Origin: a phage
Strand: one strand, 5' to 3'
Sequence record: NC_093713.1
Length of the DNA: 41,184 nt
The notes below the pieces were generated by a model that saw only the letters and a list, made by a program, of their open reading frames with translations, had not been told where the DNA came from and did no database searches. This document shows positions 27,805 through 29,744 of this stretch, piece after piece. Both the position numbers and the translations under genes were made by a program. The first letter of the stretch is position 1, and each line of letters starts with the position of its first letter.

Positions 27805-27833
27805 AATATAATAGGGTCTAAGGTAATAGTCAA
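27805..27833 (-). promoter_or_regulatory. sigma70-like promoter (TTGACT-N17-TATATT) for the small-gene operon
   Basis: Hexamers with 17 nt spacing just downstream of two terminators. Confidence 0.5.
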
Positions 27834-27926: not shown

Positions 27927-27960
27927 AGTATCGTCGGATTAGTCTCAGGTGTCAATTGGT

Positions 27961-27988: not shown

Positions 27989-28117
27989 TTTCGGTCATAA
28001 GCCCTGAACCCTACGCAGTCTCCACCGCTTGGGCTGCTGCTTCGGGTTTACCGGGGCTTAGTATGCAAGCACAAGCAGCGTAGGGATAAGTTTACTAAAC
28101 GCCTTCGTATTCGTCCA

Positions 28118-28603
28118 TCATTTAACAGCCCTCCCAATAGCCTCAGCCTCTTGCCACGGTTTACCGTCGAACAGCGCCAGACGCCCGGCTGTACGGCGAC
28201 GCAGGCCAAGTAGTGGTTTGCCGTTCTGGTTGATGAACAGCGCCAGCTTAGCCCGCAGTGTTGCAGTATCACCAGAACGCAGTGCCTTGCCTGCGCCCGT
28301 AGTAGACGCAATCACGCCAGCACCTGCGTTATAGACCAGGTCGCACACTGCATCAAACTGCGCCTGTGTCAGGGAGTGGTGTGCTGCTGCGTCAACCGCA
28401 GCTACAGCCTTAGCCATATCACGATTCAGTAACAGGAGGCCTTGCCCTGGCGTGATGGTCTTACCTGGTGTTACGTCTGGCCCGTAGTGACCATAACCAA
28501 TAGTCAGGTACTTCTCGTTCGGCGTAGCGCGATACGCAGTTCCGCGGAATCCCTCGAACGCGGCACAGAAATGCAATCCATTATCTGAAATATTTCGAGA
28601 CAT
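28118..28603 (-). CDS. endolysin, phage lysozyme (glycoside hydrolase family 24-like)
   Basis: 161 aa; N-terminal FEGFRGTAYRATPNEKYLTIGYGH consistent with the T4 lysozyme catalytic E/D/T region. Confidence 0.75.
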   Translation of the reverse strand: MSRNISDNGLHFCAAFEGFRGTAYRATPNEKYLTIGYGHYGPDVTPGKTITPGQGLLLLNRDMAKAVAAVDAAAHHSLTQAQFDAVCDLVYNAGAGVIASTTGAGKALRSGDTATLRAKLALFINQNGKPLLGLRRRTAGRLALFDGKPWQEAEAIGRAVK

Positions 28604-28853
28604 GCTTATGTCCTCCGTATGACAGCCACGCCTGGCGAATCTGGCGCAGCGCGACTAATGTGATTAATGTCTCAGGCAGCGTAGGCGACATGCTGCCCTG
28701 TAACAGGTGAATACATCCGGCGGCACAGACGATAGCAGTCAGGATATAGAGAACACGCCCGAACAGCCCGTCGTCCACGCGTTCATTATACACGTTGAAC
28801 AGGGACGAAGCGCCCATTGAAAGCATTGTGACAAACCAGAATAGCTCAGTCAT
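28581..28853 (-). CDS. membrane protein between holin and endolysin (holin/antiholin-like)
   Basis: ATG at 28853 preceded by AGGAGG; two hydrophobic segments; the track ORF extends upstream in frame. Confidence 0.45.
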   Translation of the reverse strand: MTELFWFVTMLSMGASSLFNVYNERVDDGLFGRVLYILTAIVCAAGCIHLLQGSMSPTLPETLITLVALRQIRQAWLSYGGHKHVSKYFR

Positions 28854-29154
28854 GCGGTCCTCCTGGGCGGGCAATATCGCCGCCCGATACGATGCCAGAA
28901 AGGCGGGAATAGATAGGCATCCAGAGAATGGCAATGATGAATCCGAGGCCAGCTATCTCGCGCTCACCGGTAATACCAAACCATTGAGCCGCAAGAGGTG
29001 CGCCAAATACGGCGCAAGTGAAGCCAGTTGCAATAAAGCAGAAGCCGTCAATAGGGCCAGAAATAACGGACTTATGTTGCCTTAGTCCGATTACCCCACC
29101 AGCTAGTGCGGCGGCGAGAAGCCACCCCGTCACTGTTTCAGTAAATTTATCCAA
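28846..29154 (-). CDS. holin (putative), TTG start
   Basis: 102 aa with hydrophobic segments, directly upstream of the endolysin; only in-frame start is TTG with SD GGAGGA 6 nt upstream. Confidence 0.55.
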   Translation of the reverse strand: MDKFTETVTGWLLAAALAGGVIGLRQHKSVISGPIDGFCFIATGFTCAVFGAPLAAQWFGITGEREIAGLGFIIAILWMPIYSRLSGIVSGGDIARPGGPHD

Positions 29155-29160
29155 GATGAA

Positions 29161-29198
29161 TCCTCCAGGTGCGTATTAAGTATGCAGTAACTGGAGGA
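29161..29198 (-). promoter_or_regulatory. hairpin sequestering the holin Shine-Dalgarno sequence
   Basis: 8 bp stem TCCTCCAG / CTGGAGGA with a 22 nt loop; the 3' arm is the SD of the TTG-initiated holin. Confidence 0.45.
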
Positions 29199-29229
29199 TA
29201 CCACGGGTAGGAATTATCCTAATAGTTGT

Positions 29230-29523
29230 TTATTTATGTCTCCAGATGTATTGGCGTCTCTGCGGTTTCGTCGGAATATCATCGTATCCCAACGATTTCC
29301 AGTAATTAAATAGCCGATTAGCGATTGCTGCGCGTTCCTGTGTTTTAAACTCACCGAGATTCACAGCCTTCCCGTTCTGGAATCCACAGGCGCGGACCGC
29401 TTTGCGTCTGGCCTGAATCTCGGGGTACAGTGCATTACGGCGGCGCTTGTGTATACGCGTATTCGCTCTCGGCGACAGCGGCGCAAGGCCGCTTCGTTTC
29501 AGGATGTCAGTTGCTAACGACAT
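29230..29523 (-). CDS. basic protein (97 aa), hypothetical
   Basis: ORF track; TAATG overlap with the upstream gene. Confidence 0.4.
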   Translation of the reverse strand: MSLATDILKRSGLAPLSPRANTRIHKRRRNALYPEIQARRKAVRACGFQNGKAVNLGEFKTQERAAIANRLFNYWKSLGYDDIPTKPQRRQYIWRHK

Positions 29524-29744
29524 TATTTCTCCTGTTTACCAAGTCGCTTAGGTGAGCAGATAGCGCGTACCTCCGAATCGTTGGGCTTGTCGCCCTGAAA
29601 CAGGAAGTGCGCGTTCTCTGCGGCGCGTGCCGCTGACTGGCACGCCTCCATCGAGTAAAACGTTTCTGATGCCGCCAGATGCATCTGACCCGTGGACAGC
29701 ACCCAGATAAATAAGATGCTGGTCATCAGAAGTATTCCCCACAC
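29523..29744 (-). CDS. small protein with N-terminal hydrophobic segment (secreted or membrane)
   Basis: ORF track; MTSILFIWVLSTG hydrophobic N-terminus, two Cys. Confidence 0.35.
   Translation of the reverse strand: MWGILLMTSILFIWVLSTGQMHLAASETFYSMEACQSAARAAENAHFLFQGDKPNDSEVRAICSPKRLGKQEK

Follow-up and report, generated by a model that had tools for sequence, protein, structure and literature searches.

The genome analysed here is that of a Kagunavirus (Guernseyvirinae), a phage of E. coli (record NC_093713.1; its whole stretch of 41,184 nucleotides (nt) is called the window below), and the first gene of its lysis cassette, holin I, is preceded by an RNA hairpin in which the Shine-Dalgarno sequence (SD) of that gene is buried. 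We consider this hairpin to be probably a selected cis-acting element whose anti-SD arm silences translation of holin I. A role in restricting holin translation is well supported, the effect on translation being what the leader sequence leads us to expect. The most likely specific mode, which we put forward tentatively and somewhat short of calling it probable, is a gate of the type described for gene e of phage T4, in which transcripts started within the hairpin would escape the inhibitory arm. All hairpin and holin features lie on the minus strand, which the first-pass annotation of this locus had left unstated.

In the sense of the mRNA the end of the leader reads ...GUGG UAUCCUCCAG UUACUGCAUACUUAAUACGCAC CUGGAGGAU UCAUC UUG. 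An inverted-repeat search found the two arms complementary at 9/9 positions and 22 nt apart; all six bases of the SD lie inside the resulting helix of 9 base pairs (bp), and a 6-nt spacer, UUCAUC, separates the SD from the UUG start codon. The first-pass annotation had described an 8-bp stem with a 22-nt loop and the SD as 3' arm; SD, loop and stem stand as described, and only the length is corrected, to 9 bp, by one extra A-U pair. The 54-nt leader has a predicted folding energy of -17.3 kcal/mol, compared with -8.5 +/- 2.4 kcal/mol for 200 dinucleotide shuffles (z = -3.64), none of the 200 shuffles being as stable, and the 96-nt context gives a fold z-score of -3.47. Taken in isolation, the hairpin is predicted at -12.0 kcal/mol as a simple stem and at -14.2 kcal/mol in its minimum free energy form with a small inner helix, the duplex of the SD with the anti-SD of 16S RNA being worth -9.3 kcal/mol. 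Furthermore, the predicted probability of the SD being paired is ~1.0 in six sequence contexts, from -50/+30 to -300/+150, and the cost of opening the SD region, 12.7 kcal/mol, is the highest among the 34 genes scored, for which the starts annotated in Escherichia phage K1ind2 were mapped to the window. By our calculation an exact 8-mer complement within ~35 nt is expected ~5e-4 times per gene. The hairpin is confirmed to be more than chance. A scan of positions 28700-29700 on both strands at E <= 1 matched no Rfam family. Two more 6-nt complementarities to the anti-SD arm are present upstream, AGGAUA at 29215-29220 (against 29195-29200) and CUGGAG at 29240-29245, at the end of the upstream open reading frame (ORF) (against 29191-29196); either one could draw the arm away and leave the SD transiently free, and CUGGAG is absent in genomes that have a gene for an HslV-like peptidase upstream.

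The small protein encoded behind the hairpin is supported as a holin by its match to PHROG 2359, 'holin' (PHROGs profile search, E = 5.2e-31, residues 1-97), by its size, by its hydrophobic segments, of which hydropathy analysis gives three, the first being W11-L24, and by the endolysin gene nearby; in relatives it is annotated as 'holin-like class I'. On comparative grounds, UUG is the real start of the gene. Starts further upstream are excluded because an in-frame TAA (29178-29176) lies in the hairpin loop, so that UUG is the first canonical start. The same 309-nt coding sequence is found in two independent GenBank annotations, the K1ind2 RefSeq record and that of phage Snoke, which also annotates a ribosome-binding site. 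Moreover, UUG is present in every distinct Kagunavirus-type leader examined, and homologues starting with ATG or GTG begin at the equivalent Met-Asp (MDDK, MDNK, MDR, MDKL, MDEL). The annotations and this conserved N-terminus bear out the earlier claim of a TTG start preceded by GGAGGA. The accompanying claim that neither ATG nor GTG occurs before the first hydrophobic segment is wrong, as codon 8 is an in-frame GTG (29133-29131), though one without an SD: the sequence upstream of it (AAAUUUACUGAAACA) holds nothing purine-rich, and its G29131 is A in 2/27 distinct sequences. A dual start in the style of phage lambda was rejected, since the N-terminus reads M-D-K-F-T-E-T-V and this GTG is the only second start. 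UUG is a weak start codon. In the window TTG opens 3 of the 34 genes with mapped K1ind2 starts, and non-AUG starts recur in the phrog_2359 family, with UUG or GUG in Kagunavirus, Serratia phage Scapp, the Jersey A lineage and Pantoea phage Nafs113. In Salmonella phage LSPA1 (locus L044, ~1278-1586), the TTG-initiated class I holin is unannotated in GenBank, with ORF, SD and hairpin intact, a gap that we attribute to the non-ATG start.

Conservation within the genus was scored on 41 distinct Kagunavirus sequences (40 IMG/VR loci and GenBank records), and a separate set of 27 distinct 90-mers was scored as well. In the 41 sequences, 84% of the columns at third-codon positions of the holin vary, with a mean minor-allele fraction of 0.26; the 18 arm positions include one variable column (minor-allele fraction 0.0014), and the 22 loop positions show singleton variation only (mean 0.011). 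A further 36 metagenome loci contain only two singleton changes, both at the pair 29192-29167, namely A->G, which gives G-U, and U->C. Likewise, the 5' arm is invariant in the 27 90-mers except for one A29192->G, which keeps G-U pairing. The conserved stretch spans ~-58 to +21. LSPA1 carries six substitutions in the loop and none in the arms; the loop changes add four pairs (UUAC/GUAA), for a stem of 13 bp, a leader z-score of -6.4 and ~-23 kcal/mol for the 54-nt leader. Collectively, these comparisons support strong purifying selection on the hairpin element.

We regard it as very improbable that the element has no function and is a chance inverted repeat or a hitch-hiker on a recently spread recombination module. 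The leader does lie at a module boundary, where the upstream gene is either an ORF of phrog_9632 or one for the HslV-like peptidase; in Salmonella phage VT223 the leader is joined to a truncated holin; and the 5-mer pair CCTCC..GGAGG alone is not rare, 0.63 being expected per genome. However, the 9-bp helix reaches z ~-3.6, its arms are invariant beside saturated synonymous sites in at least 41 distinct genomes, and other genera have independent hairpins that share the architecture but not the sequence, compensatory changes being present in some of them. The VT223 locus (L042, 1500-2050) is itself chimeric: a Kagunavirus-type leader, hairpin, TTG and the first 20 holin codons, at 94% identity, are fused to unrelated sequence in a 48-residue ORF (1578-1724), followed by a Jersey-type terminator hairpin and a GTG-initiated holin (1769-2050), and it looks like a recombination scar within the holin N-terminus. 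A leader ORF of 24 codons in the +1 frame (GTG 29204 to TGA 29132-29130, minus strand) covers the hairpin together with the beginning of holin I, where conservation is highest, and its translation could unwind the stem; it was considered unlikely and is probably no gene, as it has no SD, is interrupted by a stop in LSPA1 and lacks its GTG in VT223.

Leaders of related holins were gathered from IMG/VR and GenBank, the phrog_2359 match having been made for the holins of the window and of the Jerseyvirus VT223 and the others being linked by tblastn relatedness. In ten lineages a hairpin lies directly upstream of the holin, with a C-rich arm 5' and a G-rich arm 3', and the 3' arm is the only SD, while the arm sequences differ. 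Besides the Kagunavirus form these are found in Jersey A (UCUCCGAAGG/CUUUCGGAGA followed by U6-7, GUG start), Jersey B (CUCCGUAUGG/CCUAUACGGAG, AUG start, no U-tract), the Serratia phages Tsm2 and Otaku (GCCUCGG/CUGAGGC, no U-tract in Tsm2), Klebsiella phage VLCpiS11a (CCCCCGAAU/AUUCGGGGG), Enterobacter phage phiEap-2 (GCCCCUG/CAGGGGU, no U-tract), Dhillonvirus (5' arm GUCCCAGUGAGC, followed after the stem by U6), Klebsiella phage KLB22 (UCCCCGGA/UUCGGGGA followed by U7) and Scapp, of the Scappvirus group (GCCCC/GGGGC, UUG start, no U-tract). The fold z-scores are -2.6 to -6.4 for most lineages. RNAalifold predicted no structure on MAFFT cross-lineage alignments of the hairpins, in which MAFFT had set the 3' arms out of register, and was replaced for the Jersey-type stems by pair counts anchored on the CUCCG core. 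These counts show coordinated exchanges of both partners at pairs 6, 8 and 9 (A-U/U-A, G-U/U-A, G-C/U-A), with a fixed CUCCG:CGGAG core. Exchanges of U-A->C-G and G-U->U-A are found among Tsm2, phiEap-2 and VLCpiS11a, and the stem of a Dhillonvirus relative (71% holin identity) has gained a C-G pair by a compensatory insertion. Because equivalent hairpins recur with compensatory changes and the arms are conserved, we conclude that selection has kept an SD-burying helix at the phrog_2359 holin in several independent sequence versions.

The same comparison bears on the reading of the hairpin as a transcription terminator or attenuator, which would limit entry from the upstream operon and bury the SD incidentally. 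Roughly half of the related hairpins have a U-tract: those of Jersey A, Dhillonvirus, KLB22 and VLCpiS11a run into U5-U7 and resemble intrinsic terminators, and the GenBank record of phage Ent1 labels the equivalent hairpin a putative rho-independent terminator; in the window, UUCAUCUU follows the stem, with 5 U in 8 positions after an 8-bp stem and 4 in 8 after the 9-bp stem. Nevertheless, the loop in the window has 22 nt, where 3-8 nt are expected, the U-tract is interrupted, and a promoter and terminator scan called neither this hairpin nor any other terminator between the same-strand upstream ORFs and holin I. Moreover, Jersey B, Tsm2, phiEap-2 and Scapp keep the SD-bearing 3' arm without a U-tract, and all ten lineages have the C-rich arm 5' and the SD 3', with no other SD, an orientation that termination alone does not demand. 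Judged from these leaders, what all lineages share is a buried SD, not a U-tract, and a primary role in termination is improbable. In Dhillonvirus (L158, L161-L175) and KLB22 (L159), a canonical terminator hairpin with U6-7 lies within the 40 nt ahead of the holin ATG, its end 0-1 nt from that codon; SD-like bases occur nowhere but in the 3' arm of this hairpin, whose 5' arm is overlapped by an extended -10 (TGATATAGT), a layout that may be described as a 'promoter inside terminator'.

Whereas the hairpin, its rank in opening cost, the selection on it and its recurrence were shown, we infer the effect on translation, the promoter and the consequence for lysis timing. On any transcript that carries the full leader, the C-rich 5' arm would pair with the SD-bearing 3' arm. 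As the 5' arm is transcribed first, the helix could close upon emergence of the SD, before the start codon is made, and it would outcompete pairing of the SD with 16S RNA, UUG lowering initiation further. Holin I would be very poorly translated from such full-leader RNA, because the SD:16S duplex is weaker than the hairpin (-12 to -14 kcal/mol) and the start codon is a weak one. Holin II and the endolysin may follow by translational coupling, through their overlaps with the genes upstream of them, and the infected cell would be protected from premature lysis caused by read-in transcription from the small-ORF operon upstream.

The first-pass annotation had proposed that the occluded SD and the weak start throttle the holin. 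Restriction of translation is well grounded, whereas a constant throttle that sets lysis timing is not established, since a stem of -12 to -14 kcal/mol, exceeding the -9.3 kcal/mol duplex, would together with UUG be expected nearly to silence the gene and not to tune it. If the throttle were constant, all holin mRNA would carry the full hairpin, there would be no internal promoter, and rare breathing of the stem plus the weak UUG would give a low, steady synthesis that times lysis. Hairpin and UUG do occur together and are each conserved, non-AUG starts (UUG or GUG) are found repeatedly across the holin family, and a consensus scan called a sigma-70-like site, GAGACA-18-GATAAT (29242-29213), that would place the whole hairpin in the 5' untranslated region. 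Furthermore, lysis by lambda is delayed when its holin is translated less efficiently (bioRxiv 10.1101/2025.05.14.654169). However, the stem, and still more the LSPA1 leader at ~-23 kcal/mol, is well beyond the stability that permits useful translation; steady leakage could hardly build up a membrane-saturating pool of holin in a single latent period; and it leaves unexplained both a conserved TGn with TATCCT overlapping the 5' arm and the -10-like hexamers that abut the arm in relatives. A stability limit for useful translation from SD hairpins has reportedly been set by work on the MS2 coat gene. Overall, we consider a constant throttle rather unlikely. According to the known relation between SD-hairpin stability and expression, a stem this stable should nearly shut the gene off, and for that reason some bypass of the stem is likely. 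Melting of the stem by translational coupling to the upstream ORF is ruled out because the stop codon of that ORF is 75 nt upstream, beyond the reach of its ribosomes to the stem.

The bypass that we favour is a gate at the level of transcription. The 5' arm overlaps a candidate extended -10 element, TGnTATCCT, with a predicted +1 near A29188, inside the loop; transcripts started there would lack the anti-SD arm and serve as the productive holin mRNA. In the set of 27 sequences, T29203 is invariant in 26 and G29202 in all 27, and position 29201, the 'n' of the element, is polymorphic (G16/C11) and is one of only two freely polymorphic sites of the leader. In Tsm2, Otaku, VLCpiS11a and phiEap-2, TTGCAG-N18-TATACT forms a conserved island, with a variable spacer tail, that abuts the 5' arm, and the extended -10 named above abuts or overlaps the arm in Dhillonviruses, among them the divergent one (71% holin identity); -10-like hexamers are also found in Jersey B (GATAAT, L055) and KLB22 (TACTAT). 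A hexamer with at least 4/6 matches, including A2 and T6, lies within +/-4 nt of the arm in 4/7 lineages, against a background of 0.015 per position (p ~0.007, post hoc). We therefore raise, as a possibility and rather tentatively, a family-wide switch, a 'promoter inside anti-SD/terminator hairpin' that would control the first lysis gene of several groups of enterobacterial siphoviruses (Kagunavirus, Jerseyvirus, other Guernseyvirinae, Dhillonvirus and KLB22), in which early read-in transcripts would be terminated and/or translationally closed and transcripts from host-type promoters, with the -10 abutting the 5' arm, would be open. If so, logic like that of T4 gene e would have evolved, or been retained, in phages without an RNA polymerase or late sigma factor of their own, and would act on the holin. 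A sigma-70 promoter inside the loop was also sought and rejected, no fitting hexamer pair being present.

Several points weigh against the silencer and its proposed gate. The arms are invariant within Kagunavirus, so covariation comes only from relatives with hairpins that cannot be aligned by sequence; the 3' arm is constrained anyway as SD, and the constraint on the 5' arm could reflect promoter DNA, not RNA. The hairpins of Scapp, phiEap-2 and KLB22 are not significant against shuffles, and some members of the holin family (Pantoea Nafs113, Pectobacterium Arno18, Erwinia RF1, L100-L103) have no hairpin, these being more distant members with ordinary unstructured ATG or GTG initiation regions. 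As for the promoter, TATCCT is weak and has no -35, and the consensus scan missed it and called GAGACA-18-GATAAT instead, a site with its -35 in the upstream ORF that is absent in relatives with the HslV-like gene upstream. Jersey B L057 has lost the -10 hexamer, and in Jersey A and Scapp its assignment is ambiguous. In addition, an RNA started at 29188 is still predicted to pair its SD partly with CUUCUC (codons 12-13), at an opening cost of 6.5 kcal/mol versus 7.5-10.1 kcal/mol in the same context, which makes the 'open' state not fully open. Literature searches found no map of transcription start sites and no transcriptome for Kagunavirus, Jerseyvirus, Dhillonvirus or any Guernseyvirinae phage.

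Conservation of the loop could also point to a switch in trans, in which a phage or host protein or a small RNA would bind the loop or leader and open the hairpin, or close it further, at a set time. Conservation of the loop comes close to that of the arms (mean minor-allele fraction 0.011, with 0.26 at third-codon positions), which base pairing alone does not require, the conserved stretch extends over ~-58 to +21, and alternative pairings are available, since AGGAUA (29220-29215) can pair with UAUCCU of the anti-SD arm. Yet the leader has no Rfam match, the loops of other lineages are short and unrelated in sequence, that of LSPA1 differs at six positions, and no candidate factor was identified; loop conservation is equally explained by the 5' end of a promoter-initiated mRNA or by a ribosome standby site. 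We give a trans-acting switch little credence. Two other readings of the structure were rejected: an RNA thermometer, for which its stability (-12 to -14 kcal/mol at 37 C) is too high and its pairing too perfect, and an RNase III site, for which the 9-bp stem is too short.

Table 1. Positions of the leader elements, candidate promoters and genes around holin I in the window
Feature	Position	Strand	Details
5' arm (anti-SD), AUCCUCCAG	29191..29199	minus	perfect 9-nt inverted repeat
Loop, 22 nt, UUACUGCAUACUUAAUACGCAC	29169..29190	minus	optional inner 3-bp helix UGC/GCA; contains TAA 29178-29176
3' arm, CUGGAGGAU	29160..29168	minus	contains SD GGAGGA 29166-29161
UUG start codon of holin I	29152..29154	minus	ORF listing; 6 nt after SD
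In-frame GTG, codon 8 of holin I	29131..29133	minus	alternative start, two codons before W11-L24
Candidate extended -10, TGnTATCCT	29195..29203	minus	overlaps 5' arm; putative, read from sequence
Alternative sigma-70-like site, GAGACA-18-GATAAT	29213..29242	minus	consensus scan, 9/12 matches; transcripts would include the whole hairpin
Upstream ORF, 97 aa	29230..29523	minus	phrog_9632, no assigned function
Holin I, 102 aa, 309 nt	28846..29154	minus	phrog_2359, first lysis gene
Holin II, 90 aa, class II-like	28581..28853	minus	phrog_2508, E = 2e-34; K1ind2 annotation
Endolysin	28118..28603	minus	PF00959 Phage_lysozyme, E = 4e-27

The lysis cassette as a whole (28000-29600, 1.6 kb) is 96.9% identical to that of Escherichia phages K1ind2 and K1ind3, and 205 phage records match it as a query. 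Between the stop codon of the phrog_9632 ORF and the UUG of holin I lies an intergenic leader of 75 nt. The ATG of holin II (28853) overlaps the stop codon of holin I (ATGACTGA), and the endolysin, two genes downstream of holin I, starts 23 nt within holin II (28581-28603). A Pfam search matched neither holin I nor holin II. This chain of overlaps could relay translational control of holin I to the entire cassette. The initiation region of holin II has an opening cost of 18.9 kcal/mol in a -18..+12 window, the highest in the genome stretch on that measure. Just downstream of the endolysin, two strong sigma-70-like sites are present on the minus strand, TTGACA-17-GATACT (27927-27955) and TTGACT-17-TATATT (27805-27833), with 10/12 matches each; the lysis cassette may thus end one transcription unit, the next having promoters of its own.

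Upstream of the leader, the 18 nt at 29214-29231 (minus strand), AAACAACTATTAGGATAA, are the end of the HslV-like peptidase gene, its final codons with the stop (..TKQLLG*); many relatives (VT223, Snoke, Ent1) have that gene ahead of the holin. The window has the phrog_9632 ORF upstream instead, and the tail persists as a non-coding remnant, which marks a module-exchange boundary. A 'regulatory motif' GGATAAWTCC, which occurs once in the window, was rejected, being largely made up of these last codons and stop and partly a coding relic. The phrog_9632 product is a basic protein of 97 residues with a stretch, NGKAVNLGEFKTQERAAIANRLF, that in our impression resembles AP2-type DNA-binding domains; Pfam gave no match at E <= 0.1.

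Holin supply sets the time of lysis and hence burst size, and Kagunaviruses, which are K1-specific coliphages, are candidates for phage therapy, for which a conserved cis-element silencing or gating the holin would offer a handle for engineering lysis timing. For annotation, the UUG-initiated holin has been missed in at least one GenBank genome (LSPA1), and the hairpin of Ent1 is labelled as a terminator only. The comparison also suggests that the T4 lysozyme principle may be widely used for holins in unrelated siphoviruses.

Literature searches found no published description of this hairpin element in Guernseyvirinae (Kagunavirus, Jerseyvirus) or Dhillonvirus, and its nearest counterparts come from other systems. 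Its homologues in position are the terminators upstream of the holin in Jerseyvirus and Dhillonvirus, which likewise lie immediately 5' of the phrog_2359 start with the SD in the 3' arm; unlike them, the version in the window has a 22-nt loop and no clean U-tract, so that SD occlusion has been kept and terminator features have not. Generic SD hairpins, such as those of coat and lysis genes of RNA phages and the ROSE and fourU thermometers, share the pairing of an anti-SD strand with the SD, and in Q-beta coat expression falls as the stability of the SD hairpin rises (PMC2978339). The present hairpin differs in being too stable for a thermometer and in having the upstream stop 75 nt away, with no sign of activation by an upstream cistron. 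In lambda S, an RNA stem-loop limits ribosome access to a G-rich SD, and the rate of holin translation sets lysis time (bioRxiv 10.1101/2025.05.14.654169). A stem-loop that overlaps the SD upstream of a holin gene, the 'sdi' of lambda S, is a shared feature and would likewise control holin translation here; lambda, however, divides initiation between Met1 (antiholin) and Met3 (holin), whereas no Met-Lys-Met is present here, and the much longer stem (9 bp) would shut initiation off instead of splitting it between two starts. The early read-through transcripts of T4 gene e have a sequestered SD, by which lysozyme synthesis is cut ~100-fold, and late promoters in the region encoding the 5' strand yield open, translatable transcripts (PMC3014915). 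As in gene e, whose principle also applies at T4 soc, gene 49 and I-TevI, the SD of a lysis gene would here be sequestered in a helix on read-in transcripts. A candidate promoter overlaps the DNA of the 5' arm, and its transcripts would lack the inhibitory arm. The differences are that the regulated gene is a holin and in T4 the endolysin, that the start is UUG, that the candidate promoter is a host sigma-70 extended -10 whereas T4 uses a gp55-dependent TATAAATA late promoter, and that the phage is a 41-kb siphovirus without a known late sigma factor. Overall, the closest system in logic is T4 gene e and the closest in the gene regulated is the 'sdi' stem-loop of lambda S, and the hairpin described here would represent a known principle in a newly described family-wide instance across a holin family.

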